DNA from: Cyanidioschyzon merolae
Taxonomy: Eukaryota
Length of the DNA: 64,000 bases
NCBI GenBank assembly: GCA_000091205.1
Contig: AP006483.2
Reading direction: 5' to 3' (one strand)
In this document: one piece after another, positions 2,451 through 47,593 of the stretch
How positions within the stretch are numbered: position 1 is the stretch's first letter
Layout: each line of letters begins with the position of its first letter
Made by a program: the position numbers and the translations under genes
Notes under the pieces: model-generated
Seen by the model: only the letters and a program-made list of their open reading frames with translations
What the model was told of the DNA's origin: nothing
Database searches by the model: none

Positions 2451-3528
2451 GATGTTGCAACAGGACCGGGTACTACGGGATACCTTGCTTCAGTTTTAAG
2501 CGCCCGGTGCCGTACTTGGCGATTATGAGCGTCTTCCAGGCGATCTCGCCGACAAGTACACTGTGCGCTGTACACGCAAGATCACGCTGTTCCATGCGAT
2601 AGCGCTGCTGTGGAACGCGATGTCGTCGATGATGAAACATCTACCAGAATGAGAATCCAGATCAGAAAAGCATTCGAGAGATTTTTGGCTGAGTGTATGT
2701 TCCATTCGTGCGAAGCGGTGACGCTCTCTCTATAAGAAGCGATCACTGCACCGACTCCAGTCTGAATGCAAGACCCTCTCCCTTGCAATCGGAAAGACGG
2801 GGAATGCCCTGCCATTCAATGATGCTGCTGGTGCTGCTCCTATTGAATGCCGCTCCGTCGATGGTTTTACAAAGACACACGAGGATTCGGCTGCGGAACG
2901 GGTTGATTATTCGGCGCAACAAGTTTCATAAACTACCGGCATACGCTAATGAAAAAGCCTTCAAGGCATGATGAAAATTTTCTACTCGTATATCCAGCAG
3001 AACGTATCGTGGCGCCCACGAGTTTCCTTCCAACAGAAAGATTCAAGGCTCGAAGCATGCGTGATTCGGACACGCTGACTGTAAGGAAAGGCAACGAATG
3101 GAGGCCTGTACTTATACATTGGATGGTGATATCCGTCATTATATGAAACCCCTTGTTCGAGAGCGCCACGAGTCATCTTGACGCGGGTGCCGTCACGCAT
3201 TCCAACGGCAATACGTCAACGTATCCACTCCAAAAGACCACCGAGTATGCCGAGACTGCGCATAAATCCGTATGTTCTTGTTGCTGAGCTTTGAATGGCT
3301 AAATAGCGCATCTGAAAAGCGTTCTGAAAAATTCTGAAAGGCACGAACAGAGCAAGCACTTCTACATCCATTCTAACCTGACACGAGCGTAGCGCCCAGA
3401 CGCCAGCCAGCGTTGTCAAGTTCCACGATAATCCGGCTCGTTCACAGGCGTTATCGGGCGCCATCATGGGACCAAGGTGGGCCGGTCCCGTTGCGCTCTT
3501 TTCTCGACAGTGGCCCCAGCTTCGATTG

Positions 3529-4878: not shown

Positions 4879-5553
4879 CTAGCTCGCCAGACACGACGAG
4901 TTAAAGACGATCCCGACGCCGGATTCAGCGCCGAAGAACGTCGAGTACTCCGCTGTCGAGACATTGAACACGCTTGCCATCACAGATGGTGAGGTTTGTT
5001 CAAAGACGCTTGCCCGGCTCGCAAGGAAATAGACCTGTGGAAGACCGCTCAGATAGTTGGCGAGGAGCACCAACGGTGTCGATGATGTCTCCGGCCCGGT
5101 GATCATGTGCGGCCACCCGGCCGGGATTATCATGAAGCTCCCGTTGGTTATGGGCGTCTTCAGGTGGACAACAGAGCCGTTCGAGGACCAAAGGCTGAAG
5201 GTGCCCGTACCGGAAATGACGAAATAGAACTCGGGTGTATTGGTGTGAACGTGCGGCTCCAGAATCGCGCACTTCTTCAACGTGAAATACAAAGCAGCCG
5301 AGCCGACAGAGTTCAACAACGGATTCCGTGTCCCTTCATATGCCTGTACGGACCCTGCCGCAGTTGAGAGTGCAACCACACCGTCGACAAAGATATTCTC
5401 TACGTACTGAGAAGCCGGAGCTTCCAGCAGCTCTTGGATCGTACCAGCTTGTGGACGCGCGAACGCAGACTGCACGAGTGCTATGACGCACCACAAACCC
5501 CAAAACGAAAGCAAAGTTCTGCGCATCATGATTTTCGTTTTTCTTGACAACAC
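4879..5553 (-). CDS. Secreted cupin / germin-like protein.
   Basis: A hydrophobic signal peptide is present (MMRRTLLSFWGLWCVIALVQSAFA). Cupin motif 1 reads LEPHVHTNTPEFYFVISGTG, matching G(x)5HxH(x)3-4E(x)6G. Cupin motif 2 reads GSFMIIPAGWPHMITG, matching G(x)5PxG(x)2H. Several N-x-S/T sites are present. Confidence 0.6.
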   Translation of the reverse strand: MLSRKTKIMMRRTLLSFWGLWCVIALVQSAFARPQAGTIQELLEAPASQYVENIFVDGVVALSTAAGSVQAYEGTRNPLLNSVGSAALYFTLKKCAILEPHVHTNTPEFYFVISGTGTFSLWSSNGSVVHLKTPITNGSFMIIPAGWPHMITGPETSSTPLVLLANYLSGLPQVYFLASRASVFEQTSPSVMASVFNVSTAEYSTFFGAESGVGIVFNSSCLAS

Positions 5554-5619
5554 AAATATCCGTTCGTGAATGAATTAGGGAAAAGCGTTTCGCGGTATCA
5601 TAGCGGGAGATGCTACCGC

Positions 5620-6330
5620 TCACTCAAGAACAGTGCCCCAGCGCATCCCAAATTAGATCCTCCGCTTGGTGCACCGACACCGCACACGCCGCGTTGGAGG
5701 GTAATCGCAGGCGGCACTGTTCATTGTTGTTCAACTTAATTGTGTTCCGCCCCCAGGTGATTGATATCAAATGGCATTTCGCGGCGCATAGCGGATGCGC
5801 TCATCCTTCGCTCATTCTCAAACCAACGAATTCCAAGCTACAGGTACAGACATGGACGTCAGAGATCCCGCGGAGCCGTCATCGCCGCGTGCCAGAGAAA
5901 TCCGTGCAAAATACGCTTTTCATCGACTATCGAGCGTCGAAGAGGAAGAAGAACAAGAAGAGGTGAGGTAGGCGAGAAAAGATGCTTGCCCGACGGGACG
6001 ATAACGAGACTGTATCGGCCCAGAGGGCACGTGTTCGAGGACTTGTCGCGTCGGTGAGTTCAGGCAGCGGCAATGCACGCAATGAGTTCGTGAACCGGGA
6101 CTTTAGCGCCGCTATGCAGAGTAGACGATTTGCGGTGCTGAAGATGAGATTCGAGGAGCTGACGCCATCGAACTTTATGGGGCAGCCTCTCTGGCTCGAA
6201 GTGTGCCTGGATAAAAAGCCAAGCCGATAGCTAGCGGCCGGTCGAAAAATGCCAGGAGGCGTCTTTGAGCGGGAGTGCACATACACTCTATGGTTGAGGG
6301 ACATTTTTTTGCTTCATTGACATGTGGAGC
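5620..6330 (+). mobile_element. Tc1/mariner-superfamily transposon fossil, copy A, 3' portion. It is truncated near the cupin promoter.
   Basis: The nucleotide sequence aligns with 27060-27600 and 13085-13495. Shared ORF-level similarity is ARVRGLVASVSSGSGNARNEFVNRDF versus ARVRGILASVTSTSGKQRMEFVYRDV. The 5' part keeps a degenerate ...CTDTAHAA... (HDNAPSHTA-like) block. The shared 3' end reads ctctat...ttcattgacatg. Confidence 0.6.
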
Positions 6331-6789
6331 AATCGTGTTCACATGACCGGTGATTCGCTGCAGACGGGTTCAGGAAACGACGGGGCAGCAGGAGAAATGC
6401 ATCGCCAATCGGATGCGGTGGATCGCGGCACCCTTCTGGTTGACAGACCGTTTACGGAAATCAGGGATGCCCTGTTGTACACCATGGGTAAACGCAGTGC
6501 CGTGATCGGTGGAACACCTGTGCGAGGACGCATTTTTGCTATTTATGGATGGCTTTTTTTGCGGATAGTCAATAAAAGGAAGGTATTCTATTGGTTGGAA
6601 AAAGTTCGCTGAAAGACTTGATGCCGTCACTGCGAGTCTGCAAAAAAAGGTCTTTTTTGTCCAAGTCAGTTCTTCTACGCTCAGCAAGCGGATGAAGCGC
6701 ATTTCTCGTTGTCCATATTGTAAAGGCCATGCACCCTAGACGGAAGTTGTTAAACCGCATCAATACGACTGTCTTCGGGTATATGCATT

Positions 6790-7122
6790 CTACTCCATAG
6801 ATTGTTTGACGAATGCTGATACAGAAGCCAAAGATTCTGAACTTTCCGAAACAATGACACGAATGGTGAAGAAGAAACGGGCGCGGAGAAAGAAAAAAGC
6901 GCGCTTCTCTGGGAGATCGTCGGGCGTTGAATGATACACGGCAGGTTCTATCATGTAACGTGACCGCCTATAGCAGGAGCGACGCGTATTCGTCTCGTTC
7001 GATGGGACATCATTCGGGAGAAATCGCAGTCTTCTATGTAGATGCTTAAAGAGAGGCAATCTGCTGCTCGCTAATATGAGAGAAGCGAGCGTGACGAAAC
7101 CATGACCCCGAACGGCAATCAT
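6790..7122 (-). mobile_element. Inverted fragment of Tc1/mariner-like transposase, covering the region around the first catalytic Asp.
   Basis: The fragment translates to ...DVPSNETNTRRSCYRRSRYMIEP...DDLPEKRAFFFL. The mariner equivalent is HELNERQ...R..C..LL.R...GDEKWIFF. It is homologous to 46899-47237 (EAPLNETNTGSSCDKRSRFS...DGLPEKRIFFFI). Confidence 0.55.
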
Positions 7123-9860
7123 ACCGAGTGGGCGCCCAGCATTCTCTCAACGGACAGAGTTGTTGAACGCCTCCGGCTTTGTTGAAGCGCTCTTCATGGC
7201 ATCTCCTTCCAGCACTCTAAAGTCCTGCTATAAAAGAAAACCACATTCCATCAAGAAGAAACGGTGAAAGCGTATGCAGCTGAAACTGGCTTTGATCTGC
7301 TCTTCGTGTCAGCGTATTAGACTTGCTTCCGTCTAGTCAAAGACGTCTCCTCTGTTGCCAAACGCCATTTCTATGTCCAGCGCACGATAGACGGCTCGTT
7401 CGCATCCGTGACACCAAAGTTCTGTGGCAAGTCGCTCGCTGTTACCTTCACCAGTCCTGAACTACTGTATTGCCCCCGAGCCCGTACACGACATCGAGCG
7501 TAGAGGTGCGCTTCGGTCTGTGCGCGTGATCGCGACGCAGAACGGAACAAAAAACCCTGCTGGAATACGCAGTGCATTCGTAGAGGAGGCGCGCTTCAGT
7601 GCAATCGATCATCCAGATCGTCTGAGAATCTAAGAATCAAAGAGATGCGGAGTGTAGCGATCACAAGCGTGACATCCCACCATGTAAAGAACACAGCGAC
7701 AAACGAGATGAGGTAGAAACCATCCGACAAAGGAGAGGCAGATCCCGCAGAAAAACAACGAGGACGAGGAGGGACAGCGATGAAAACCTGTCGGAGCAAA
7801 ATAGTCAGTTTGAAACCACTGTCAAGGTTTCGCTCCGAAAAATGCAGCGTGGGGATTCTGCAAAACAAACCGAGATGCAGAGCGCCATGATGGATAGTAT
7901 ATAGCTTCGTACTCGATCAAGGCTCGCCTAGCTTGCCTCACCATGAAGCGTCATCTCGAGGAACGATTTCTAGACGTTCCGGATGCAGGGCTCCCATCTG
8001 TCCATATTCCCCTGGAAGTTCTCGATCAGACCTTCGTGCGCTAACACAACTGGTGCTCGGCACAGAAGCGGCAGTACGGCCGGGATCGGAGGATCAGCGA
8101 TTTCGGCACGCGCTTCTCAGAATACCATGACGAGTTGCCATGCCGTATCGGCGATGGGCACAATCCACTGCGCAGTTGCCGAAAATCATCAAAGCAATCT
8201 CGAAAACCGTATGCGAGATAATCAAGAGGGTTTCATAGAAAGCACGCAGTGGGCGTTGCAGCCTCACCAGACTGACCCAAACATGAGGAACTTCATGAAA
8301 GCGGCTCTCCAGTTCGGAGATTACACGGGCGTCAGAATGGCTCACGCGAAGGAGCTTTGGCGGCAGTGCATGATACTGCGCTTTGGATCACCATCGGTTT
8401 CGGTTGTGCGGAGGCAAGAAGCTTGGATTCGCCAATTTGTTCAGCGAGCTGGAAAAGGAAACGATCGAGAAAACACGGCGCGAGCTCGTGGTAGCCTATG
8501 GAGCTGGACCTGCGGTACCAGGCGCGCGCCGCACCCCTGGCCCTTCGACGACAGCAAGCAGCAAGTGCAGGCATCGATTGTAACCGATTCTCATCCTTGG
8601 ATTCAGAAGGATCGAACCGCATCACGAGCACGGTCACACGCTGGAACAGGTAGAGAAAATGAACATGAAACGGATCCAGATGCACGAAACGGTAAACACT
8701 AAGATGGCTGAATATCGATTGGTGAGGCAATCGAGATTTCCTGGCTTCGTATGGTGTGATTCCACCAGCAGCGGAGCGCGCGAGCTCGCCATGCACAACC
8801 TCGTGAACGCCTCGATCCACGTCCGGAAATGTCGTGTGTTTCCGGAGCGCCCAGCAGCATTGCATCGAGCGAACTTTCAAGGAAATCACTGAGTATTCAG
8901 TGTGGACGTAATGCTGAACCGCTGAAGAGTCTCGATGAAAAACCAGCGGCCGTCAGAGGTGCATTGGATGCGCATCTAGAGCAATGCAATGGACTGGTAC
9001 GCGTTCGTAATGCAGAAAGGAATGGATTCCCGATATATACAACGAGAAAGGTTCTCTCGGACAATTGGTGATCGCTCACGGTAGTCCATTACTCGAAATT
9101 CCTCTGTGGCTGCTTTCATTGTCTGCAGAGAGGGATCGCATCGCACGTAAGATCAAGAAATTATAGACGAAGCATCCGGGGCCTACTGCCAGCGAATCTT
9201 CATATTCAAATGAAAGTCCATGGAATGGTGGCAGCGGCACTGGCGGTGTTAGATTTATGGAGACTGGAGGACATAAGGCGCAACCATGAAGGCTCCCTCG
9301 GATGTCGATACCAGTCGCGCCGTTCGGGATATCTCGCTCGTGTCCACAAAATCCAACACAGCCTAAAAACCCAGAGCGGGATGCGGCTACGAATATCTCA
9401 CGATAAACGGATGCTGGACGATGAGCCCTGAAGCACCCGACGTGTCTAGATGAGCAGCTAGTTTCTGGAATAGCCCGCTGCCAATCAACGGCGCTATCCA
9501 CATACCTGTGGCCCTGCGAGATGGAGCACCTGGAACGCAGCTCGTTCCTGGAAGTGCCTTGCAACCTTAAAAGTGTACATCCTTGGGCCCTTATCGCAGA
9601 CAAGAGGTAGTTCTTTCGTGGCGACTCGCCTCAAGCGAATGCATATGCCGTAGGTTACTTTATAATCGGGGGTGTTTCTAGAACGGGTATCTCTTGCTGG
9701 GTCGTATGCTTTTTCTGAGCGGAAGCGCACGAGCGAACGTTTCAGGTCGCTGAGGCCTTGGACGCCTCCCGCTGCGACGATAAACGACGCGCGTGACTTG
9801 GCCACAGTCGTTCTGCGCACCCGCACCCAGCTGTTCGCACAAAGCAGCACTGGTGCGGTC

Positions 9861-11189: not shown

Positions 11190-11234
11190 CTTGCCCCAGT
11201 GGAAGATACACTCTGCCGTCTAGCGCTCTAGGCC

Positions 11235-11835
11235 CGACAGACCCCGACGCCAAGCCCTGTAACGCACAGTACGGCGCACGGGATGGTGTGCGCTGCGCCC
11301 CCGACGCAATTCTCAAAATCGCTGTGCGGAATTCGGAGCGCAGTGCCCCCGATGCACAGCCCTGAATCCCTGGGGGAATTCTCAAAATCGCTGTGCGGAA
11401 TTCGGAGCGCTGTGCCCCCGATGCACAGCCCTGAATCACTGGGGGGGAATTCTCAAAATCGCTGTGCGGAATTCGGAGCGCTGCGAACCCGATGCACCGC
11501 CCTGAATCACTGGGGGGAATTCTCAAAATCGCTGTGCGGAATTCGGAGCGCTGCGAACCCGATGCACAGCCCTGAATCCCTGGGGGGAATTCTCAAAATC
11601 GCTGTGCGGAATTCGGAGCGCTGCGAACCCGATGCACAGCCCTGAATCCCTGGGGGAATTCTCAAAATCGCTGTGCGGAATTCGGAGCGCTGTGCCCCCG
11701 ATGCACAGCCCTGAATCCCTGGGGGGAATTCTCAAAATCGCTGTGCGGAATTCGGAGCGCTGCGAACCCGATGCACAGCCCTGAATCCCTGGGGGGAATT
11801 CTCAAAATCGCTGTGCGGAATTCGGAGCGCTGTGA
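11235..11835. repeat. Tandem minisatellite, 70-71-bp unit x ~8.5 copies, immediately upstream of the bromodomain gene start.
   Basis: The unit gaattctcaaaatcgctgtgcggaattcggagcgctg[ct]g[ac][ac]cccgatgcacagccctgaatc[ca]ctggggg starts at 11376, 11447, 11517, 11587 and so on. Each unit has two EcoRI sites and an internal inverted pair gctgtgc/gcacagc. The whole unit is conserved with no unique spacers. Confidence 0.9.
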
Positions 11836-11899
11836 ATGGTATCCCTCGTAGAGATGCTATGGATGCTATTCTTAAGAGTGATGGTATGAATGTTGACGA

Positions 11900-13495
11900 T
11901 GATTCTGCTTCCCGTGTCGCTCGCAAACGTTCGTGCGATTGCAGCAGCGCGTTCCATGTGCACAGCTACGTATCCGGTTGGAGATTGTGCGAGACATTGC
12001 AGGAGTCTCACGTGCGTGCATGTCGTCAGGCTTGATGACGAATCGTTTACCATGGAACATTGCTGCATCTTACGGACGTTCAATGCAATGCTGTCCAATT
12101 CCCGCTGAGTGTAGTCGACTGCTTTTTCGCAGCGTTGAGCAGGAGATCGAAACCGCTGTAGGATGTACCCGATAGATCGTAGCCGAATCGCTTGTCGGCT
12201 ATATTTTCCCTACTGGAGCGTACAAGCAGGATTGCATTCATCATTCAGGAAGGCCATACCGCAGTACTCAGATGATTGAGGAACAATGAAACAAAGAAGT
12301 ATCTGCGCTCTACGTCAGAAACTGATTTTGTCAAAGACTGTTTGCTGTCCATGGGACAAGTAACAACGGTTGATCATCTTACGGGACGCAAAAGCGACGA
12401 TCGAAGCAACCACGCATGTCACGGTTTCGCAGAAGCTGGCGCGTGCGGACCCGAAAACCCTGGGATACAATCGCCAAAAAAGTTCTAGTTCACGCGCGGC
12501 CATCTTCCAACGAAATCTCAACGACAGCATTCCTGGAACTTTGCGACCGGTGTGAAGCACAGGAGCATCGGTTAGTTCTTCCAGTTGATGACGCTTGATT
12601 TGGCCGAAACAGTCAGAGCGTATGTGGGTAATCGCGGGGCGCGGAGCCCGTTATATGAAAGATCGGACTCGAAAAGACGGACATCATCATGTGTTCTAGC
12701 TGCAGAGGATCTTTTTGGCGGCCTCAGTTTCGCAATTGGAGAGGACTCGTACACCACCGACCACTTCGTCGATTCAACGAAGACGTTTCCCTGGAATCTG
12801 GCGACGTCCTTCTATTGGACAACGTTTCATTTGACCATTCCCATTGGGTTCGAGCTTTTGCCGATCCTATCGGGGTAGAGGAGCTTTTCATTCCTCCGTA
12901 ATCTCCGTGGCTCAACCAGATTGAAAGAGTTTTTTCTAGTCCGAAACATAATGATCGCTCCACTGAGCGTTTTGCCGAAGCGTTCAGCTCACGATGTCAA
13001 ACCAGGGCGCATGTCGTCATTGTTGCACAGGTGCTTCTACCTCCTGCAATGACTTCATCTATGGGCATAAAGGAGCCAGTTCATTCAAAAAAAATTCAGG
13101 GATGAGCTTCGGTATACACTAGAGAAGGTCGAGATGGAGAGAGGGCAGCGGAGCGCTTCGGCGACAGGAACGCATTCAGAGCCGACGGAGTAGCAAATGG
13201 TAAAAAAGGCACGAGTCCGAGGAATCCTTGCATCGGTGACTTCAACCAGCGGCAAACAACGCATGGAATTCGTGTACCGAGACGTCAACGCTGCTATCTG
13301 TACCAGAAGATGCGTGGTTCTGAACACGAGCTCAGAAGAGATGACGCGATCGCACTTCGCGGTGCAGCTTGCAAGGCTCGAAGCGTACAATCGAAAACTG
13401 AAGCCGGTAGCATTCCGCCGGTCCGCAGAGGCGAGAAGACGACTGTGAGTGAGTACCTATATTGACCCTCCATGGACTTCAAACATTTTTCGTTG
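11900..13495 (+). mobile_element. Tc1/mariner-superfamily DNA transposon, decayed near-full-length copy B.
   Basis: Over ~1.5 kb the sequence aligns with copy C (25950-27600). Degenerate transposase motifs are in mariner order. The first-D region reads ...NEISTT...CDRCEAQEHRLVLPVDD (~12500-12600). An HDNAPSH-like block reads LLLDNVSFDHSH (~12815). A PYSPDLNPIE-like block reads ELFIPP*SPWLNQIE (~12890). The frame is broken by stops and frameshifts, and the 5' boundary is approximate. Confidence 0.6.
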
Positions 13496-15012
13496 TACTC
13501 TACATAGCAGAAGCCGCTGGATGCTCGAATGCTGTAGGCCGCGGGGCACGAGGCTGTAGATCCACTGTCAAAATGTTCTCGTTGCCCGAATGCCAGATCC
13601 GACTTCCAGCCCAGCACCACGGTTAGATTCAAGGAGATTTCAGACAATTGATCGTTGCACGACTACCAGACCAGACATTCTATCGGGTATCACGGTCAGA
13701 TTCAGGGATTTTCCAGATACAGAGCCTACCGTGGGTATCTACTGTGGCATTGGAAGCTCCGCTTTGAATGCCATACGGAGACAGCACGGCTTCACAGGAA
13801 GCGCGTCGGGTACTCGAATGTTCATCGCCAAGGCACGCAGTACTCGGGTACGCTACACGCCAGTTTCGCATCAGGCTGTGAGGGCGGCTTCAGAGCGCCC
13901 GACGTGCTTATCATATAGACCTCAATACAGCGTCCAGTTGACGCTCAGGGTGCAGTAACTAGGGTATGTGTGTGTTATGCTTCCCGCTCTGCCAGACACG
14001 ACGTGTCCAGCCCGAACGTCCCAGTTGACCGTGGCGTTCGTGCTGTTGAGAACAAGGCATGGATGCACTTGGGCCACGCCTGGGCCACCTCGAAGCAGTC
14101 CCTTTACCAGTGCGCCCGGGGCACGCAGTTGGTCCCAGCTGCACGTCACCGCCAGCGCCAGAGGCTTTGGAAACTTTTACTGGTTCGTAACGCAATGCTG
14201 CATATCAACAGTTCTCCCGTATGTTCTGGCGACTTTGGGTGCAAGATGCAAAGCCACAAGCCCACAATGACGGATGCACGAGCTGCGAATATGCATCGAT
14301 ACATCTGAACATCCTCGAGTGCGTTCACCATGGCCGCATGACCCTCATCGCGAATGCTGAAACGGCATGGCAGCGTTTGCCACAGAGTTCAGCAGCAGTC
14401 TGGGACGATAGCTTTTGCGCTGGCACTTATGCCATCACGACGCCAAGGTGTGCAAGGCCCCGAAAATGCCGGCGGTTCTCCGCGCCACTAGGAATCCGTT
14501 TCTCGACCGCATGACGAGAAAGAGAATCCGAAAACGAGCAAAAGAGGCGGCTGTACCTGCGCCCTCTGGTCACTGTCGTTTATGGTTAGAGGCATGCAAT
14601 TTCGATCGCGTTCGGGGTGTTTCGGCACCGGTCCGGCCCTGAGCAAAACCGATGCCAGCTGTCTGCAGCAACTGCCCATCATGGTATTCAGGTCTGCATA
14701 ACGAAAAACATATCGTTCGCATAGAAACCTGCGTAGCATACCAGGCTCTAACGCAACTCCCGATACGGTATGGATCTGCATAGCTGCTATTCGACCTGGA
14801 CGGCACTTGCGCAATATTCCCCACGGTAACGAACCGAAGCGCGCAAGACCGCAGCGATCAATGTGAAGAGGCCATGCACCGGGCTATCGCGTTTCCAGGC
14901 ATTTTCCACGTTCACACGTTGCAGCACAACCTGATTCGTCTCGAAATCGAATGATCGTGTCCGGTGCTCCAAGCAATCAGCATGCTGTAGTGCACAGTTC
15001 GTACAAAGCGGA

Positions 15013-16215: not shown

Positions 16216-16392
16216 ACCAGAGATAAAGCGTTCAACACACCGGTTAACTCGGTCGATAACAGTGTTTCAGGGCAGGGTTACGTAATCCCGTTACCCTGGC
16301 ACCGACGCCGCGGCGCTCATGGACGCAGGTGCTTGGATGCCGAGCACGCGGCGAATGTAGTTGCGATTTCGCTTCCGACAACAAAAACGCTT

Positions 16393-16830
16393 ACATGGAC
16401 CATGGATCCAAACTTGTGGGATGTATAGGTATTTGCTTTCTCGAGAGCATCCATCATGCTGCTGTGCTTTACCTCCAGGTTCCACTACTGATAGTTCCTC
16501 TCGGATGTACTGGTCGTTTCGTGCGTTCTATCGTGCGCCGGGCGCCTGCCTTGCTGCACCCGCAACCGCAGCGACACCGTTGGTACGAATGCATCAACGA
16601 GGTCGAACGGCATTCTCATATCACTGAGGGCGTCTGATCGACGCGTTTTTCTGTACGACACGAAATCGGATTTCATCATCATTCTGGGGGCCTGCAAGCT
16701 GCGCAGACAGGTACATTGCCTGCGACAGCGCAAAGCGGTCTACTAGGAGTCCAGTATGACCACCACGACACCTGGATGCAGCCTGAATAACCTCAGTCCC
16801 AGAATAAACTGCGTTTCGGACGAGTTGCTG
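16393..16830. repeat. Dispersed ~430-bp repeat, copy 2. Its homolog is at 2015-2450.
   Basis: It is collinear with 2015-2450. It sits 180 bp upstream of the HAD gene start (16215, minus strand), in the same relative orientation as copy 1 with respect to the Myb gene. Confidence 0.7.
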
Positions 16831-17455
16831 CTCTGAACTCACCACGGCACTCGCTACTGCTGAGGCAGATAATGCGCGAGTCGAGCAGACTCGTCCGACG
16901 TACTGGACCTGCCTCCTAGGAGGTGAATTTTCGATAATATGGAAACCTTTTCACACTTTTCAACGTTTACCGCAGAGGAGTAAAGAAGCTGTTGTCTCGT
17001 TGCTAGTTCGTGCCTAGATTCTAGGCTTTTTTTCTGTTTATAGAGTGCGCCGCGTGCACGCACTGCAATCTCGCACGCAATCCGCACAGCGACGTGCGCG
17101 GCAGCGGGCGCTTGTGAGAACGCACTCATAGCCTTGGCGCTCGCCCGCTCTACGCTTATACTGCTCGTGTGGAGTCGTGCTCCGCACTCGCTCAGTGCAG
17201 GTAGGAAGTGGTCGTGTGTGTACACTCACAACGCACTTGTGACCTGTGCGAGCGCTGTACATAACGCGCTTGGTGTTTGTCAAGCGCACAGGAGTTGGCG
17301 GAGACCGGCATCGAGTTCAACACTGCGCTACGCGCTTCTGCGCTGGCTACGACAGAACGCGGGTGCGGCACCAGGAAACACACGTGCGTTCTAGAGAGGT
17401 ACCCGTTTCCTGTACACTGTAAAAGCGTACGTGACGGCGCTTTGGTCCTGGGCGG

Positions 17456-23491: not shown

Positions 23492-23818
23492 GCCCTGACT
23501 CGTGCAACGACTAGACCGCAGCAGCCGCAGCTACGGCCGCCGCCGGTGTCGCCTGCCGATGCCGTGCCCTGCACTGCACTTCGCCGTTGTAGTCGTGCTG
23601 CTAACGCGCAACTCCCGCTTCTGCGCAAGAGCGAAACTGGTGCTCGTTACGAGCAACGAAACATGTTACCTGCCTTCACGTTCAGTGTCACTGCTCCTGA
23701 TTCGAGGAGCTTCTCACTACACCATCGATGGAGCGCTCGTGGTGCCGTGAGGTTCGTAACACCTCACCGACGGTGTCGGCTGTGGCGAGGGCGGCGGCTC
23801 GCAGCCGGTGACCTCCAG
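23492..23818. promoter_or_regulatory. Divergent (bidirectional) promoter region between the RRP12-like gene (-) and pyruvate kinase (+).
   Basis: There are 327 bp between the two start codons. If the upstream in-frame ATG at 23546 is used, the gap is only 55 bp. Confidence 0.5.
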
Positions 23819-25795
23819 ATGACCCTTGCGGAAGAGGCGAAGTCGCCATCGAACGCGCCCCGGTCGCATCAGAAGCTCGTATCAGAGCTATTTCCGGAAC
23901 GTTTTCGCCCTTTTTTAAAAGCTCTTGACGACGGATCACTGCCTCTGGAGGATATACCCGCCTTCAACGCTCGTCGAACGAAGATCGTCTGCACTATTGG
24001 GCCCGTAACTGCGAGCTATGAACAGTTGCTCAAAATGGCAGCGCTCGGAATGAACGTCGTGCGCTTGAATATGTCGCACGGTGACTATATGTTCCACGAT
24101 CAGGTCATTGGGCACGTTCGACGAATCAACACCGAATCGCCGTTCGTGCTCGCGACGATGCTGGATATTGGCTCATTCGATCAGGTTCGCCTGGGTGAAT
24201 TTCCCGGCAACGATCTCGTGCTTCGTTCGGGTGATATGTTGACGATTACCGCTCGGCATGAAGCATCGTATCCGGAGAACGTTACGGAGGTGAGCGACGA
24301 TGCGTTTATAGAGGTAGTCCAGCCCGGCGATGTTATTGAGATTCTTGCGAGTCCGGACGGGAACATGGTGCTACTCCGGGTTCAGTCGCTGTCGAACGAC
24401 GGCAAAGATGCACACTGTGTTGTCATGGAGGCAGGACGTGTCCGCAGTCGTTCACCGGTGGCGATTCGTGGAAAGAGTTTCAAGACGCGACCGCCTCAAA
24501 GCGGCGCCTTTGAGCACGACCTTGAATTTGCGATACGAGAACGCGTCGAAATGATTGCGCTTTCATTTGTGGAGCACCCAGAACAGATTCTAGAGGTAAG
24601 ATCGCTGCTTCGGCAGAACGGTGCGAACAATACTGCGATTGTCGCGAAGATCGAAAGTGCTGCTGCGCTGCAGAACTTGCCAGCGATTATACAAGCGACA
24701 GATGCTGTAATGATCGCTCGCGGTGACCTCGGCACTGATATTCGTTACGATATGGTGCCGTTCTGGCAACAGCGAATAGGCCAAATTTGTCGCGCTTATG
24801 CAAAGCCGTGTATCGTGTCAACGCATTTCCTCGAAAGCATGGTTCTTTATCCAACCCCCACGCGGGCTGAGGTCACGGATATTGCCGAAGCAGTGAAGCA
24901 GCAGGCCGACGCCCTCATGCTGACTGCGGAAACCGCCAGCGGCAAGTATCCGCTGCGGGCGCTGAGCCTTATGAGCCGCGTTGCGCTGCGCATAGAGCAG
25001 CGCTTGGCAGCCGGCATGCGACGCCTCAACGCGGTACCCGCCTTCGAATCGAACAACAACTGGTCACCGGAGGTGCTGCGGAACACAGAGCGAGTCTGTG
25101 CTACAGCGTGCACAATCGCAGAGCAACTGCGAGCAGCTGCGATTTTATGCTTCACACAGCGAGGCTTCATGGCTACGTTGCTTTCGCGATGTCGCCCGCA
25201 TTGCCCCCTCTATGCTTTTACCAGCAGCGTCATGGCAAGAAACAAGATGAGCATTCTCTACGGTGTGCGAGCATTTCGGATATTGTTTGATGGAGACCCT
25301 GAGGTCACCGTTCAGCGCGCTATGGATGAGTTGCGAGACCGTCGGGCGCTGCAACCCGGTGATCGCGTCGTCGTGGTAGCCGACGTGCTCGGTGGGCGCA
25401 ATCGAGCCACAGAGGAGGAGATGCTTTTCGTCTTTGGCAATCTCGATGTGGAGAATCGTGGCTATATTAGCCGTGCGCTTGTCCGGCGAGGTTTACGGGA
25501 ACTCGGTCTCAAAGCTGGCGACGATGTAGAGCTGGAAACCTGGCTCGATGATTATGAGCAGGATCAAGCGCTCATTGAGGAATGTGCTGTTGCACCGGAT
25601 TTTGAGGAATGTATGGAGCGCGTTGCAGGTTCAACTGAGCGTGATGGCACCGAACCTGCGTCGCTGGAAACCGCTCGCACCGGAACGACAGGTCGTCGGC
25701 GGGTGCTCGATCAGGTGGATTATGCTGCTTTCCGTCAACTTGCCCAGGATAGCGCTGAAATTGTTCAAACGATTCAGTTTCGCATCATGGAGTAG
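23819..25795 (+). CDS. Pyruvate kinase.
   Basis: The PK signatures are RRTKIVCTIGPVTASYEQLLKMAALGMNVVRLNMSHGDY and MIARGDLGTDI. Full A, B and C domains are present. About 110 extra C-terminal residues follow (...ELGLKAGDDVELETWLDDYEQDQALIEEC...). The ORF is open upstream to 23546, giving a possible 91-aa Arg/Ser-rich presequence. Confidence 0.9.
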   Translation: MTLAEEAKSPSNAPRSHQKLVSELFPERFRPFLKALDDGSLPLEDIPAFNARRTKIVCTIGPVTASYEQLLKMAALGMNVVRLNMSHGDYMFHDQVIGHVRRINTESPFVLATMLDIGSFDQVRLGEFPGNDLVLRSGDMLTITARHEASYPENVTEVSDDAFIEVVQPGDVIEILASPDGNMVLLRVQSLSNDGKDAHCVVMEAGRVRSRSPVAIRGKSFKTRPPQSGAFEHDLEFAIRERVEMIALSFVEHPEQILEVRSLLRQNGANNTAIVAKIESAAALQNLPAIIQATDAVMIARGDLGTDIRYDMVPFWQQRIGQICRAYAKPCIVSTHFLESMVLYPTPTRAEVTDIAEAVKQQADALMLTAETASGKYPLRALSLMSRVALRIEQRLAAGMRRLNAVPAFESNNNWSPEVLRNTERVCATACTIAEQLRAAAILCFTQRGFMATLLSRCRPHCPLYAFTSSVMARNKMSILYGVRAFRILFDGDPEVTVQRAMDELRDRRALQPGDRVVVVADVLGGRNRATEEEMLFVFGNLDVENRGYISRALVRRGLRELGLKAGDDVELETWLDDYEQDQALIEECAVAPDFEECMERVAGSTERDGTEPASLETARTGTTGRRRVLDQVDYAAFRQLAQDSAEIVQTIQFRIME

Positions 25796-25949: not shown

Positions 25950-27600
25950 AAGGACAGGGTGCACGGGTACGGAGTATCTGCAGCTTTCGCTGGTACAGAG
26001 ACGCACGCGCTTTAAGTGGCATCGGATGCGCCAGGTCGTTGACCCTAAGCTTGCCTCGTTGGCGTTGCGCAACAAGGCAGTGGCCGCCGCTGCTACGCAC
26101 TGCGTTACGTTCCTTGCTGTACGCCATGCTTATAGTCTTTCGTTTCAGTCTTTTCCCCTTTTCTGGATGTAATCGAGTGCTTTTTTTTGTAGTGCATAGC
26201 AGGAGATCGCCATCAAGATGCAATGTACTCTATAGATCGTAGATGGATTGCCTGAAGGATACATGCTTTACTGAATCGTGCAAGGAGGACTGCATACCTC
26301 CTTAAAATGAGTCGTATCATAGTACTCAGATGGTTGAGGAACTCTGAAAGAAACAAGTATATGCTCTCGCGACAGAAACCCGATATTCCTGCCGGCTGAT
26401 TGCGGTAAACGGTAGTGAAGCGGTTCCTTGAACATCTTACAAGCAGCAAAAAGCGACCATTGAGGTCACGATAAGCGTCTCTGGTCTTGTCCAGCTCGTT
26501 CGAGTGGTCCTCAAATCACTGGAATACAGTTGCAAAAAAGTCCAGTATCACGTACGGTCATCTTCCAGTGAAGTCGCAACGACCGCGTTCCTGAAATGCA
26601 GCGATCCATACGAAGCACAGGGACGTCGCCTTGTTTTTTTCGGTTGACGATCGTTGCTTCGGGCACACTGGTCGGAACGTATATGGGTACTTGCGTCTGC
26701 GGAGCTCGTTCCATGTGCAATCGAACCCGTAGAGCGCGATATCATCATCTGTTCGAGCTGCAGTGGATTCATTTGACGGCTTCAGTTTCGCTCACAAAGA
26801 AGGTTCATACAACAGCACCAACCACGTTGTCGAATCATTGAAGACTTTTCCCTTGAAGTCTGGCATCGACCTTCTATTCGACAACGTCGCATTTCAGCAT
26901 GCAGCTTGCTTCAGATCTTTTGCAGATTATGTTGGGGTAGAGCTGCTGTTCATCCGTCCGTACTCCCGGTGGTTCAGTTCCGTCGAAAGAGGGTTTTCGA
27001 TCGCGAGACACAATGATCGATTCACTCGGCGAATTAATGATAACCGATGGGCATACAGAGTTCCGTCGATTCGGTGAAATAAGAAATCCCAGGGAAAGGT
27101 ATGGGCGTGCAAGTCGGGGATCCCGGCGGGCGGTCATCGCCGGCTGCCCAAGAAAAAAAACGAAAATATCCCGTTCTCACCGACCATCGAGCGAAGAAGA
27201 GCAACTGTCGAAGAAGACGACGCAAAAAAAGGGAGACAGATGAGAGAACGTGTTTCCCCGACGGGTCGAGGACGAGACTGTAGTAGCACAGGAGGCATGA
27301 ATTCGGGAAATCCTTGGAACAGTGCGTCCACTCAGCAGTAATGCACGCAAAGAGCTCATGAACTCAGACCGCAAAGCGCTTTCAACATCAGACAATGTTT
27401 GGTGCTGAAGACAAGACCGGAGGAGCTGATGCGAGCCAACTTCGTGCGGTAGCTTCTCAATGTCGAAATGTACAAGGAGAAACAAAAACCGACGAGAGGT
27501 TGCCGGTCGAAAACGGCTAGGAGGCGTCTGCGTCTGGGCTTCCATGCACTCTATATTATTGTGAAACGTTGTTTGTTTCATTGACATGCATGTAGTGGCT
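25950..27600 (+). mobile_element. Tc1/mariner-superfamily DNA transposon, decayed near-full-length copy C.
   Basis: It is collinear with copy B. The HDNAPSH-like block reads LLFDNVAFQHAA. The PYSPDLNPIE-like block reads ELLFIRPYSRWFSSVERGF. The first-D region reads KHRDVALFFSVDD. TIR-like ends are agtactcagatggttgaggaac...tgaaagaaacaag (5' side) and cttgtttgtttcattgacatgcatgtagt (3'). The frame is broken. Confidence 0.6.
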
Positions 27601-31471: not shown

Positions 31472-31698
31472 GATCGATCCATCGATCCATTTTCTCATCG
31501 GCAAAACGTTTCCCTAGGCCAGCGTTCTCCGATTATGCGCATTTTTTTTCTTTCTTTTTTTGTGTTATTTTTTCAGTGCGCGGTATCGATCCATCGATCC
31601 AAAGATCCTCCGGCAAAACGTTTCCCTAGGCCAGCGTTCTCCGATTATGCGCATTTTTCTTTTCTTTCTTTTTTTGTGTTATTTTTTCAGTGCGCGGT
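31472..31698. repeat. 113-bp tandem duplication (x2) in the 5' region of the Bfr1-like gene.
   Basis: tgatcgatccatcgatccattttctcatcggcaaaacgtttccctaggccagcgttctccgattatgcgcattttttttctttctttttttgtgttattttttcagtgcgcggt is repeated at 31584. Each copy ends in a long polypyrimidine tract followed by cag. Confidence 0.85.
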
Positions 31699-34640: not shown

Positions 34641-37600
34641 ATGGGTTGTCCACGTGACATGCGCTGTTTGCTTCTATTCGGGAGAAGCATCTGGGTGCTG
34701 GTCGGCGCACAAGAACGTCTGTCCGAAACAGACCCATGTGCTTGATTGAACGTGCTCATCGATGCGAGTTGCGCCTCGATACTTTTCGCAGGGAAGACGG
34801 TTTCTTCGTGGAAACGAACTTTAACCACAGGAAGCTACTGGATGGAAGCCTCGTCAGTACGAATCGTACCGAAAGGCGTGCCTTTGATTCTGTCCATGCA
34901 CATGAGAGCGAAACCATGCAGGGATGCCCAGCATCATGTCTCATCTATGGGGAGCAATACCGCTTCGTACGTGATTCGATGGGTACGCGCGTTGTCGCCT
35001 GTGCTGCGGCGCGTGAACCTCTCCGGAGCTGGAAGCCTTGCCAGGAAATCTAGAGCTCCAGCTCATGCGCGCGGCATGCTCCACAATCCATAGAGATCAA
35101 GATAGCCATCGCTGATCATGGCAAGCACGCTCATCCCAACGAAAACGCGATGCACCCAAAAATGCAGAGCGCTTCCGTTCCTGTTCACAGAAGGAAGCGA
35201 TGGTAACGGTGTAGGAACGCATTCGTCAGTTCGAAATGCGTTTTCTGGTGTACCGAGGCTGTGCGCCTGGATACGAGCGGTTTTGCGAGGCAACGCAGCA
35301 CATCGCAGATGCATCTACCTGATAGAGAGGCGTCTCCGGTCACAAGCGCGAGTGCCAGAGCCATTCTCGAGGCACAAGTCCTCCCTCCGTTCGGTTTGGC
35401 GGAACGAATATGCGGAAACCTGGAAATCATCGCAGAGTCACAGCCGGGATGCGCCCTTGACTCCAAGTCGGCGAAGGCGGCTTTCGTGTACTGCGCCTCG
35501 GTCAACGGAAAGCGAAACTTGCATGGAGCGAGTGACTTTATTGGCGCCTCTGCCGATTGTATGCTGTTCTCGTGGATGTCTGCGCATGTCCAGCACGAGC
35601 GCATAGCTACGATCGGACGCGCTGCTAACGCAAGTCGGGCCATGCGCCTGCCATGAAAAATGGCATGTGCCCGACCCGTCTCTCTACACCCGTGTCAGAT
35701 TAAAATGGTAGCGTGGATTACTTGCTTTTTTCCAGCTACTGGATATTTTCTCGGAACGGGTTTTTAGATGTACAGCCTCGAGATTCGAAATGCGGCAGTA
35801 AAGGTTTACGGATTCATAGCTAGTTTGAGGATTCTCGCTCCTCTTGTGAGAACGGCTTCTTTAACTCTCTGCCGCTTGATTTCGTTCCGTCACATGAATC
35901 GAGGTGATTCGTGATGCCATCGAAAAAGCGTTGATAAAAACATCGACATCGGTATCCTATTCTTGCGTGCCCGTCTACGAGCACTCCTTGCATGTGGCAT
36001 GTTCAACTTGTTGATTTTTGGAGTTCTCGATGCTTTTGTCTCAGGGCAACTCATGGGCGCAATATTTCGCGTCACTGGATTATCGAGACAAATACGCAAC
36101 GTCGTCTCTAGGCGCTGACCTCACAAGTGCATGATGAAACTTCACTGGACTCTTGATACGGCATAATCGATTCCGTTAGAGCGACCGATGCTCCGCTCTT
36201 TGTAGTCATTGACAAGGCGCCATTCGACAGCAGTATGATACTTGTCTGATCCGACAAAGAGGCTGGTGCTGCCGTGTTAGCCTTCTCAACGAGCGCAACT
36301 GAGGCCGCCAAATCAATACATCCCAGCTGGAATAGATTACGATCTCATCGTTCTCTGTCGGTTCGATCATACAAACGACGGGTCCCTTTTCTACGAATGC
36401 GCATAGACAGTCCGGCAATTTCATCGGGTAAAAGTCTCATCGACCGAAAAAAACAGTTCGACGTCCCACTGCTGTATTCGGATGGCGACGTTCCAAGAAA
36501 GCTGCAGCTGCGATTTCGATGGGAAGGGGCCGTGTTTGAAATAGAACCCTTTTTTGCAACTGTATCCGAGTCTTTTCTGGACCATACGAACTAGCTGTTG
36601 AGAAACAGAGACGCCCTTGCCGGCCACTATCGTCGCTTTTGCTTTCCCATAGGTGATGAACAGGTCTTTTTCTACCACTGACAACAAGTGCTCTTAGACA
36701 GTCCCAGTTTTTGGTGCGGAGCGCATATGCTTGTTTCTTTTATTGTTCTATACTTATCTGAGTACAGTGGTATGACGGAACTGAATGAGGAATGCGGTCC
36801 TCCTTGCAATGTTCAGTGAGGAAGATATCCTACATTCAATTCGTCTACCATCGATAGGGTAAATTGTTTCTTGATTTGGATGCCCTGCTATGCACTGCAG
36901 AAAAACATTCGATTACACCCAGGGAAGGGTAACATAATTGAGTTGAAAGCGTATAAGACGCCCGGCCCCCTGACCGTTTGCATGGAAAAATGATTGTGGA
37001 CTTGGGCTTCAGTCAACGCAGTGACTACTTCCAATAAAGTATGTGTCTGGGGTTCGTACGATGAGGGAGTACACGGATCGAAATTTTTCGACATGTTCTC
37101 TATCCCAGGTTTTCCTTCAGGTAACTGCTTAACATGGACAACATCCCGTTCCACAAATCCTATAGCGCATAGAACAGCTTGCTTTTGCATGCGCAGCGTA
37201 TAAACTAAGCGCTAAGGGGATCTCCCCGAAGAAGTCCGTGATCAAAAGGCACCACAACAGGCGCTTAGACTGAAGAGCAGATCCGGGCCAGTCTTCAGTA
37301 CTCTTTTAGGACGTACACTGAGCCAGGGAGCGAGCCTTCATGGACCATAGGGTGACACTCGATGGATGAAGTGCTATGAGCACCCCGGAGCGCACCTGAC
37401 CTCAGCCAAATATCACTGACACAGAAGGCGCACCAACGGCATCTACAAACAAGATGAAAATGGCAAAAAATATTAATCACAACGAACCTCTGTGGAGCAA
37501 ATTCGATGACAACGGCTGAAAGCCGTAAAAGACTAACTCGCCCGCTGCCATGAACTTCCTTCGATTGCTGACAAAGGTACCGGGGAAACACGGGAGAGCA

Positions 37601-41335: not shown

Positions 41336-42874
41336 TTTCGCTTCACGGTTGGTTGCCTCTGTTACACCGGCAGCAGCGGTTGCAGTAACGCTCGAGCGAC
41401 ACCCAGCAGAAGCACAGCAGGCTACTGGGCCTGCAGTGCGCGAGGCTGGACCCGTAGCCGGGAGCAGCTGGCAGCGGTACCGGCAACAGACGAACGAAGT
41501 GCAACACGACCCGCTGGCGCCGAATCCCGCTGCGTCATGGACGATCAGGACCACCTCGTATTGTCCGCGGTGGATCAACAGATTCGGAAATACTTTGGCG
41601 TGGATATTCTGGGCCCTGGATCCGTAGAACCTGCTGGAAAAATCTAGCATACAGTCTCTGGAGGTGTATGCCACTGGTGACCGTTGCTCCCGAGCGACCT
41701 GCGTGTATGCACGGACGCTTTGCTCGCGAATATTTACGGGTGCGTCAGCATCTGTCCATCGACCTGTATGCACTGATGCTTCGCGCTCGAATGTTTTCAG
41801 GTGCATCGTCGTCACTGCATTGGCCTGGGGCGCACCCGCTCGCGACCATGAACGCGATAAACAGGTAGATGTCGCCATGCTGCTTCATTCATGGAGCGCT
41901 CTACGAGTCCTCGTGCTCTGGGCAGTACACCATTAGCTTGTTCTCGATACTATGTTTGCATATGAGATTAGCTGAGCTGACATCTTACAAATGGCCAATT
42001 CGCTGCGAACCGGTGCCCACTGCGCTGAGCTACGAGTACGATTCCTGCAGCAAAACGCCCCTTGAGAGGGAATGCGCAGGTTGGATTCTCTGCCAGGTAT
42101 CCGTACGCATGCAACAACATGATATTCGGTGTTGCGCTTACGTGGCGAGCGCGGTGCCACCAGGCTCGTCGGATGGCTTCAGGAATGTCCCTCGCAGCTG
42201 CCTCGCAGAGGTCGTTATCGATGGAAGTGCATGTTGCAAGTGTACAGGCACGTGCTCGAGCGTCGCATTTCTGAACGACGCGGAATCCAGGCAAGTCTCG
42301 GGTATATTTGGCCAATACAGAGGGAACAGCTGGGCAGAGAAAATGGGTGTTTCGCTGAGCCTTGCATGATTGCAGTTCGCGACAACATCGTCTCGTCCAG
42401 AGAACGCACAGAGCAGCAGCACTCGCTTCACGGAATTCGCATATGCGTCTCAAGTGCGCGTTGTCCAAATAGAACTCGATATAGGACTTGACAAATTTGC
42501 GGGTCTGTACTGGGAAATGAAGCGTTGTGGATCTGCTTGTAGTGCGTCGCGCAGCAAGGGTGCGTATCGCGCTCGCGAGCATGTCTTGCGCATGCGCGCG
42601 TGCTCGCAGCGGCAATCAAGCCCAGCTTCCGTATGAGTTACATCGCATGGCGCGACAGTCAGGGAGCAGCAAAGCCTGATCATGGATTTATTTTTGCAGT
42701 ACGCTCCAAACCAAAGCCGCCGTCTATCCCCGTGGCATTTTCGGAACAATGCCGAAATGGCTCTCAAGGAACGCATCCCACAGGACAATCGATCCCCGAA
42801 TCCCGGCTGGCTGGGGCTCGCGGCAAGCCATCCATGCAGCGCTGAATCGCGCTGAAGCCCAAGGCCTCTCTGCC

Positions 42875-43190
42875 GATCCAGTTCGTACATGCACCATGCG
42901 TGTTACAACTTTAGCGGGAAATATGTAGTTGCGTGCGCGAAACCGCTTCCGCCGATCTAGTTCGTACATGCACCATGCGTGTTACAATTTTAGCGGGAAA
43001 TATGTAGTTGCGTGCGCGAAACCGCTTCCGCCGATCTAGTTCGTACATGCACCATGCGTGTTACAATTTTGGCGGGAAATATGTTGTTGCGTGCGCGAAA
43101 CCGCCTCCGCCGATCTAGTTCGTACATGCGCCATGCGTGTTACAATTTTAGCGGGAAATATGTTGTTGCGTGCGCGAAAGCGCTTCCGCC
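42875..43190. repeat. Tandem minisatellite, 79-bp unit x 4, between the divergent capping-enzyme and TBCB genes.
   Basis: The unit gatc[ct]agttcgtacatgcaccatgcgtgttacaa[ct]ttt[ag]gcgggaaatatgt[at]gttgcgtgcgcgaaaccgc[ct]tccgcc occurs at 42875, 42954, 43033 and 43112. Confidence 0.9.
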
Positions 43191-43388
43191 GATGTACGCG
43201 CGTCGGTGCTGTGGCGACGATTGCGGCCCCGAAGCCAAGCGGCGCTCGCCGAACAACAACAACAAGCGCACCGCACCGCATTCGAGACGCGATCCCTCTA
43301 GCTTGCTAGCGCAGACCACGACGCTGGAAGAGGCGGCACGCTCGCAGCGAGCGACGGGCTCTCGGGCTGGCCTCTCACTACAGGCAGT

Positions 43389-47300: not shown

Positions 47301-47593
47301 AGGTCTAGACAAATAGCAGTTCATCCATCTGCTGTTCGTTGAATGCCTAGCGTGCAGTAGCAAGGCCGGTTTTCCATAAGATATCATGCAAAGCGTAAAC
47401 GCATTCCGCAACCTTCTTCAATTTTCTGCACAGATTCCTATCGTTCACTACCAGCGGAAAAAGCCAACAAAAACAAATTGGCGTGCCTGTACAGGTATTC
47501 ACGAGATCGATGCGATGAGTATAATGCCGCCGTAGCGCGTGCCCTTGGTACCTAGGCGAACGCTGTCAGCGCCATCATGTTCCTGGATCCGCT

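Follow-up and report, generated by a model that had tools for sequence, protein, structure and literature searches.

We analysed a 64,000-nucleotide stretch of DNA from Cyanidioschyzon merolae (contig AP006483.2 of assembly GCA_000091205.1), hereafter the window, which contains a decayed repeat that a preliminary description had called copy B of a Tc1/mariner-superfamily transposon. Copy B is very probably a dead copy, with an internal deletion, of a two-gene DNA transposon in the nuclear DNA of C. merolae. The first of the two genes encodes a transposase, the second encodes Fanzor1, a TnpB-like protein. Judged by their sequences, copy B and the published C. merolae repeat CMe-1A look like reciprocal deletion derivatives of one such transposon, with the transposase gene followed by the Fanzor1 gene.

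A family nhmmer profile matches copy B on the + strand at 12069-13509 (profile positions 5-1532), a length of ~1.44 kb. The preliminary description had placed the element at 11900-13495. The element is there, with other bounds: the first ~170 bases of that interval (11900-12068) are common to no other copy. In a self-comparison of the window, 12105-13494 is collinear with copy C (26163-27577) over 1.4 kb. The collinearity claimed earlier (~1.5 kb) hence stands, while the 70-75% identity given with it was somewhat too high; the measured identity is 63% by gap-permissive blastn and 68% in the core. An inverted stretch at 36247-36961 is likewise collinear with copy B, whose last 280 bp match 6026-6308. 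Homology between copies starts at ...CTTA TAGTCTTTCAACTCAATT and stops at ...GAAACGTTGTTCGTTTCACTGA. Copy B is made up as follows.

12069-13509, + strand: copy B, the whole element, with leader, transposase pseudogene, Fanzor1 stub and 3' end; homology to 13 other copies starts and stops here (family profile).
12069-12162, + strand: 5' leader of ~95 bp upstream of the transposase ATG, conserved in all copies.
12163-12994, + strand: pseudogene of an IS630/Tc1-type DDE transposase, broken by several stops and at least two frameshifts (Pfam DDE_3; tblastn with the intact transposase P0001).
13104-13454, + strand: Fanzor1 (TnpB-like) gene reduced to a C-terminal stub, which covers the RuvC-III motif region (tblastn with the C. 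merolae Fanzor1 protein CMe-1).
13455-13509, + strand: 3' terminal non-coding segment, ending at about ...GTTGTACTCTAC, where homology among copies stops.

The transposase can be recognized in copy B itself. The broken DDE skeleton described earlier is real: all three motif blocks lie in one frame, QEHRLVLPVDDA (D at 12587-12589), VLLLDNVSFDHSH (D at 12818-12820) and FIPP*SPWLNQIE (E at 12923-12925). Between the second D and the E there are 34 residues, the same spacing as in intact P0001 and in the consensus. The pseudogene has the N-terminus MYPIDRSRIA and an in-frame TAA at 12899-12901. With stops masked, its raw frame scores 39.8 bits against Pfam DDE_3 (PF13358, E 5.3e-10), for which the curated cut-off is 28.6 bits. 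Copy C matches DDE_3 at E 4.9e-4. A tblastn search with P0001 spans 12163-12988 of copy B in three frames.

Consensus sequences recover most of the gene. In a search of 5.8 billion proteins, a consensus stitched from three copies led to two intact proteins, P0001 (303 amino acids, E 8.6e-41) and P0002, and these matches fixed the gene start (MYPIDRR, 12163 in copy B). A four-copy, frame-projected consensus is an almost open reading frame of ~280 codons with the D/D/E triad. Failure of a consensus to match any transposase profile had been named beforehand as the outcome that would speak against a transposon; the four-copy consensus matches DDE_3 with 62.7 bits (E 4.4e-17). Against the NCBIfam IS630 equivalog model NF033545 it reaches 94 bits (E 1.1e-26), just below the cut-off of 100 bits, and it aligns with P0001 end to end, with 43% identity over 275 residues. 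A 1,544-bp consensus restores FSVDETCFGRNGRSVYGY, LLLDNVAFHH and PPYAPWFNPIERVFSIVKR. The first of these is the context of the first catalytic D; DEKRIFF, the mariner-like context reported for this residue in the preliminary description, is absent from the sequence.

The third catalytic residue, previously read as Glu, is indeed Glu in copy B (NQIE), copy C (SSVE), the consensus (NPIE) and all intact relatives. The Asp of mariner proper (DD34D) was not found at this position. Because of the Glu and the DD34E spacing, the transposase is best placed on the IS630/Tc1 side of the superfamily (IS630-like DD34E) and not with mariner proper. The Tc1/mariner superfamily proposed earlier is retained (DDE_3, DD34E), and the family placement, ambiguous there, is narrowed. 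Eukaryotic Tc1 elements, for example Sleeping Beauty, are DD34E. The likeness to bacterial IS630 (NF033545) and eukaryotic Tc1 comprises a common DDE_3 fold family, the Glu as third residue, the 34-residue spacing and the N-terminal helix-turn-helix (HTH) domains of the intact relatives, and for IS630 also their size (~300 amino acids). The element differs in the score of its consensus, which stays under the IS630 cut-off, and in that neither terminal inverted repeats (TIRs) nor TA duplications are demonstrated here.

The intact relatives form a large family. A word-indexed search finds 406 relatives of P0001 (~295-300 amino acids) at E <= 1e-3; an exhaustive search finds 5,728 cluster representatives at E <= 1e-3, 128 of them at E <= 1e-30. 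P0001, P0002, P0004, P0019 and P0069 pass both IS630 NF033545 (115-139 bits) and Pfam DDE_3. At their N-terminus, intact relatives match HTH_23, HTH_50, HTH_Tnp_IS630 and HTH_Tnp_Tc3_2. For the relics, the corresponding evidence consists of a weak HTH_33 match in copy E (E 0.18) and of the consensus N-terminus, which aligns with the intact relatives. The best solved structure by sequence, and the sole match in the PDB, is the catalytic domain of Sleeping Beauty (E 4e-4 over 64 residues). The C. merolae consensus, used as a query, also retrieved an intact 300-amino-acid member of the transposase family (MYPIDRRRIAINIYSILDSLRKTAAMLQVSHSTIHRW...) on two 1.35-kb contigs with 43% G+C (L023 and L024; Ga0102927_1031353 and Ga0102930_1030706).

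The preliminary description missed the second gene, a Fanzor1 stub in the 3' 400 bp of copy B. The last ~430 bp of copy B recur in copy C, in fragment A and twice in a related metagenome contig. In one frame this repeat encodes a conserved peptide, which reads ...ARVLGILALMSSTSGNKRMEFVNRDFNAAINIRRCAVLKTRPEELTRSNFVGQPLRLEV... in a 13-copy consensus. The C. merolae Fanzor1 protein CMe-1 ends with ...RRAKVRGLLALVSTTSDGKKRMEFVNRDFNAAINIRRCAVLEKRPPELTRENFVGQPLKVELYEKKLEAVVGGRSKKTGRRL..., and the CMe-1A consensus is 3,169 bp long (supplementary files of PMC3627910). Residues 612-729 of CMe-1 match 13104-13454 of copy B with 50% identity (tblastn, E 1e-23). At the DNA level the stub is 67.5% identical to CMe-1A 2737-3092. 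In the RuvC-III motif region copy B reads YRDVNAAICTRRC and the consensus FVNRDFNAAINIRRC, which is also what CMe-1 reads. These matches identify the 3' 400 bp of copy B as the C-terminal stub of a Fanzor1 gene.

CMe-1A has been described as a repeat with ~150 copies, ~80% identical to the consensus, without TIRs and with unknown classification (Bao & Jurka 2013, PMC3627910). Copies built like copy B (B-type copies) are not members of CMe-1A along its full length. Just three segments are shared between the B-type consensus and CMe-1A:

consensus 7-79, CMe-1A 786-862: leader; score 31 against a shuffle mean of 9.9 +/- 1.8 (shuffle maximum 21).
consensus 1012-1228, CMe-1A 869-1070: region upstream of Fanzor1 and its first ~55 codons; score 64 against a shuffle mean of 13.4.
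consensus 1204-1479, CMe-1A 2809-3088: last ~100 codons and 3' region; score 140 against a shuffle mean of 13.4.

The transposase segment of 933 bp sits exactly between positions 862 and 869 of CMe-1A. Conversely, the B-type element lacks CMe-1A 1070-2809, which is ~1.74 kb of the Fanzor1 open reading frame (ORF). Every B-type copy has this deletion, with high occupancy across the junction; therefore the deletion preceded amplification. The shared segments are homologous at 66-75%, the divergence from the respective consensus is similar (~80%), and neither element has recognizable TIRs. The two differ in the 933-bp transposase gene, which is absent from CMe-1A, in the ~1.74 kb of Fanzor1 and the 5' 785 bp of CMe-1A (including the repeat TE-N2_CMe), which are absent from copy B, and in the final ~50-80 bp, which are unlike. 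From this pattern of shared and missing segments, the B-type element is best described as a sister derivative of CMe-1A and not as a member. We found no publication that ties CMe-1A to a transposase in the literature library that we could search.

The leader, the start of Fanzor1 and the last ~400 bp are kept in all three types of derivative (B-type, fragment A and CMe-1A). Their retention fits the presence of cis-acting sequences in these segments, without proving it. The 3' 245-270 nucleotides of the consensus and of CMe-1A show weak folding signals (z = -2.2 and -2.7 against dinucleotide shuffles), and Rfam yields no match in the whole window. Two further stretches of the window, 2007-2474 and 16384-17079, each repeat the 5' part of CMe-1A (positions 5-467 and 8-683, respectively, 72-75% identity). 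They correspond to the short repeat named TE-N2_CMe by Bao & Jurka and have no adjoining transposase or Fanzor relic.

A two-gene unit also exists intact outside C. merolae. Downstream of the intact transposase P0019, at a distance of 31 bp, lies a 669-amino-acid ORF on a contig with giant-virus gene content (L012). A motif scan of all fetched loci showed that this ORF shares the C-terminus of the tail (...FVNRDLNAALNIRRCLIGVRPEILTRS...). It is 29% identical to CMe-1 over 685 residues (E 5e-78), by which it qualifies as a full-length Fanzor1 homologue. In four IMG/VR loci, besides L012 and L013, the transposase is followed on the same strand, after 65-150 bp, by a Fanzor1 homologue; two of the four (L058, L059) belong to a giant-virus metagenome-assembled genome and two (L057, L063) to unlabelled viral contigs. 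The order transposase, then Fanzor1, is also found in two divergent relics of the window (F and G, see below). Contigs of intact relatives have a lower G+C content, 0.21-0.46, and one viral contig (L063) reaches 0.51.

Known elements are built in a similar way. Mariner-type elements with Fanzor1 have been described as PGv-1 from Phaeocystis globosa virus and as PUl-1 and PUl-2 from Pythium ultimum (PMC3627910). By their published description, they resemble the present element in having an IS630/Tc1/mariner transposase upstream of Fanzor1 on the same strand and in the association with algae and giant viruses. In contrast, PUl-1 and PUl-2 have TIRs of 24 and 33 bp and TA duplications, TIRs have been described for PGv-1 as well, and none are shown here. 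Furthermore, PGv-1 has a third gene, a GIY-YIG nuclease (PMC3627910).

Loci L063 and L012 hold observations of their own. On L063 (IMGVR_UViG_3300028372_000028, 360-2045) lies the closest relative of the C. merolae Fanzor1 that we found (37.6% identity over 620 amino acids, E 2e-107), directly after the C-terminus of a transposase on a 33.5-kb 'viral' contig with 51% G+C. This contig could come from a virus of a cyanidiophyte-like host, or it could be a misfiled algal contig. On L012, in an AT-rich contig (37% G+C), a markedly G+C-richer non-coding stretch follows the Fanzor1 homologue (11227-11350) and is a candidate guide-RNA scaffold.

The two genes could also have met in C. merolae. An IS630-like transposon would then have entered a deleted CMe-1A-type element between the leader and the start of Fanzor1, and the composite would have spread, so that in C. 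merolae the two genes would never have formed a single unit. These points speak for such a nested insertion: the 933 bp with the transposase are cleanly either present or absent between CMe-1A 862 and 869, fragment A has the same frame without a transposase, and Fanzor elements have been described as often chimeric (Bao & Jurka, PMC3627910). However, on unrelated giant-virus contigs an intact transposase is closely followed, after 31-150 bp, by an intact Fanzor1, the divergent relics F and G show this order as well, and neither inverted repeats nor a duplicated dinucleotide surround the transposase segment. We therefore regard a chimera of this kind as unlikely.

Another possible source is the giant viruses themselves: the copies may be remnants of integrated viral DNA (endogenous viral elements) instead of products of transposition. 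The closest intact relatives of both genes do come from contigs that carry giant-virus genes (Prim-Pol, IF4E, NAD-ligase, metacaspase) and from GVMAG records. Yet the dispersed copies, at least 13 in number, agree in their 1.5-kb boundaries and in their internal deletion and are set in unrelated host flanks among ordinary algal genes, copies B, C and E lack flanking viral genes, and the uniform divergence from one consensus is what is expected from a burst of a single master element. Viral remnants are thus a very improbable explanation. Chance resemblance of motifs in G+C-rich non-coding DNA, which short motifs and copies full of stops and frameshifts might suggest, is refuted by the above-cut-off DDE_3 match of raw copy B, by the profile match of the consensus and by the full-length match to an intact transposase, and can be practically dismissed.

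Several observations weigh against the interpretation of copy B as part of a two-gene transposon. The TIRs and TA duplications that the preliminary description expected could not be recovered; TIRs were sought in single copies, the 13-copy consensus, CMe-1A and intact relatives. The 5' ends of copies B, C and L003, set against their reverse-complemented 3' ends, score no better than the shuffle mean; for the 13-copy consensus the score is 6 and the shuffle mean 8.1; and the intact relatives have no TIRs that we could find. No consistent TA on both sides can be read in the copies, whose ends are fuzzy at ~70% identity. The tail peptides and the 669-amino-acid ORF have no match in sequence searches of Pfam, NCBIfam and the PDB; published Fanzor1 proteins are the homologues by which the tail is identified as Fanzor. 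Among the C. merolae-type sequence seen, there is no copy with an intact transposase and none with a transposase plus a complete Fanzor1. Finally, the consensus was built from hot-spring metagenome contigs (~99% identical to the window at shared loci) and not from the whole reference genome.

Decay to ~70% identity could hide short TIRs. The ends of the consensus (5' ..TA|TAGTCTTTC, 3' ..TTTCACTGA|) cannot be placed to the base. In CMe-1A, positions 5-24 and ~3087-3107 form a 20-bp imperfect inverted match with a score of 12, which is reached by 0.6% of shuffles; we treat it as a lead only and not as a convincing TIR. The assignment of the transposase is upheld, that of a classical TIR-bounded Tc1/mariner element is not.

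In the most probable reading, the ancestral unit of copy B and CMe-1A consisted of a ~95-bp leader, an IS630/Tc1-type transposase (DD34E) of ~290 amino acids, a Fanzor1 of ~700 amino acids and a 3' end. In the B-type lineage, ~1.74 kb of Fanzor1 disappeared before amplification, and therefore all B-type copies have the transposase and the first ~45-55 and last ~95-120 codons of Fanzor1. The lineage of CMe-1A took the opposite course: it lacks the ~930-bp transposase gene and retains Fanzor1. A live transposase would use its N-terminal helix-turn-helix domains to bind the element ends and would mobilize the element by cut-and-paste. A live Fanzor1 would take a guide RNA from the 3' end and cut the emptied or naive site, favouring retention or spread of the element. 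For TnpB, RNA-guided cutting of the emptied or naive site favours the retention or spread of its element. Cut-and-paste, RNA-guided cleavage and the 3' guide RNA are carried over by analogy from the IS630/Tc1 and TnpB/Fanzor families, so each of these steps is what the element may have done.

To sample the family, metagenomes were scanned with a single 10-residue pattern (MYPIDRRRIA-like), which yielded 43 loci from hot-spring metagenomes. Loci that overlap the window are ~99% identical to it, with copies B, C and E in the same places. The 43 loci reduce to 13 distinct copies, which lie in unrelated flanks and have pairwise identities of 65-73%. Each copy is 76-82% identical to the consensus (Kimura two-parameter distance 0.21-0.30); copy E, which aligns only over its 5' half, is left out of these figures. 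This divergence supports an old burst, as the preliminary description had also concluded, in the same divergence class as reported for CMe-1A. All copies seen are pseudogenes that decay neutrally.

Of recent dynamics, we saw only local tandem duplication and ectopic gene conversion. L049 and L050 are dead copies on contig Ga0080006_1126386, separated by 13.9 kb; otherwise ~70% diverged, they share a 1,400-bp tract with 99.6% identity (locus 4987-6386 in both). Recent transposition was considered for this tract and rejected: the tract is a pseudogene too, and on either side it is followed by diverged family sequence. The sequence pattern is that of ectopic gene conversion between relics. A 350-bp insertion in L038 was likewise considered as a less-deleted Fanzor intermediate and rejected, being a fourfold tandem duplication of 93 bp of the Fanzor N-terminal stub. 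Short tandem arrays can thus arise from element-internal sequence in this genome, as L038 shows (alignment columns 1680-2030).

Besides copy B, the window contains two more B-type copies (C and E), one transposase-less derivative (A) and three divergent relics (F, G and H), which are visible at the protein level only. The earlier count of at least five insertions was therefore too low. With P0001 as the query, tblastn finds six transposase relics in the window (B, C, E, F, G and H). The elements other than copy B are:

26127-27597, + strand: copy C, with the architecture of copy B (family profile); its transposase relic at 26223-27041 is a single frame with stops, its Fanzor stub lies at 27375-27542.
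36241-36957, - strand: copy E, 5' half only, with leader and transposase residues 1-208 (family profile, tblastn, self-comparison).
5723-6323, + strand: fragment A, with leader, internally deleted Fanzor1 and 3' end, no transposase (nhmmer, CMe-1A match); its pieces 5723-5792 and 5807-6323 correspond to nhmmer profile positions 8-75 and 1009-1526, it matches CMe-1A 787-960 and 2840-3082, and its Fanzor stub lies at 6021-6215.
6584-8886, + strand: relic F, of a divergent subfamily, with a transposase at 6584-7467 (P0001 residues 2-298) followed by a Fanzor1 relic at 8313-8886 (CMe-1 residues 509-700, E 2.6e-20), both by tblastn.
44768-47372, - strand: relic G, of a divergent subfamily, a nearly full two-gene element (tblastn), with a transposase at 47372-46655 (P0001 residues 97-260, E 7e-17; the extension to 47372 rests on a weak second match only) and Fanzor1 at 46577-46431 (CMe-1 residues 77-123) and 45596-44768 (residues 417-695).
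61027-61526, - strand: relic H, a transposase fragment of a divergent subfamily (residues ~88-258; tblastn with P0001, E 7e-16); tblastn with CMe-1 detects no downstream Fanzor relic.

A piece at 6790-7122, which had been described as an inverted insertion, lies within relic F and, by protein homology, on the + strand. Overlapping the Fanzor1 of relic F in a different frame is an ATG-started ORF of 239 amino acids without a family match (7983-8702, + strand). It is probably a spurious ORF in G+C-rich decayed sequence.

The ORFs that flank these elements are ordinary eukaryotic genes, which encode a bromodomain protein, pyruvate kinase, a Myb protein and NAD(P)HX dehydratase. At 710 of 710 residues, the ORF for pyruvate kinase (23546-25795) agrees with XP_005535035.1 of C. 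merolae 10D. The window probably lies on chromosome 1 of C. merolae 10D.

Tandem repeats occur between the genes. A 70-bp tandem array at 11308-11836 (7.6 units, 95% matches) lies 233 bp upstream of copy B. It resembles neither the element nor CMe-1A and was found at this locus only. Its unit ends with ...CCCTGGGGGG followed by AATTC, so it holds GGGGGGAAT, which resembles the C. merolae telomere unit AATGGGGGG. In orthologous metagenome contigs, near-identical alignment begins at differing points inside the array (11727 and 11448), which suggests that its copy number differs between strains. Four more intergenic tandem arrays are found at 1731-1978, 31473-31698, 42872-43193 and 56289-56580, with periods of 107, 112, 79 and 89 bp, 2-4 units each and 92-98% matches.

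According to the C. merolae genome paper (Nozaki et al. 2007, PMC1955436), class II elements number only eight and transposons amount to 0.7%. The eight elements were transposase-related and most similar to bacterial transposases, with E values from 0.071 to 6e-7 (PMC1955436). Similarity of this kind is what a BLASTX search with IS630-like relics would give. In contrast to these eight elements genome-wide, the window alone contains six transposase relics. The same paper names no family for the class II elements and draws no link to its 3.2-kb 'WSV486-like' repeats, which make up ~5% of the C. merolae genome (Nozaki 2007, PMC1955436). From their description, these repeats are probably the same as CMe-1A. 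In total, repeats amount to 12.7% in Cyanidioschyzon and to 0.59% in Cyanidiococcus (PMC9812998).

Through the common leader and 3' end, CMe-1A, the most frequent repeat family of this red alga and hitherto unclassified, gains a plausible transposase and an assignment to a superfamily. The two-gene transposon adds a eukaryotic nuclear example of the transposase-plus-Fanzor1 module, a source of RNA-guided nucleases that now attracts interest. That intact relatives of both genes sit on giant-virus contigs supports the earlier proposal that viruses ferry Fanzor elements between algae, and ideas on how such elements work are unchanged. C. merolae is a reference 'minimal' eukaryote. We tentatively propose, as a possibility that falls a little short of even chances, that both the B-type element and CMe-1A stem from one transposase-plus-Fanzor1 lineage that circulates intact in algal giant viruses and that the repeat expansion is largely its aftermath. 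If this is true, the expansion of repeats in C. merolae relative to its sister genus would come mostly from one virus-borne transposon, and the class II content of this 'transposon-poor' genome would have been much under-counted.

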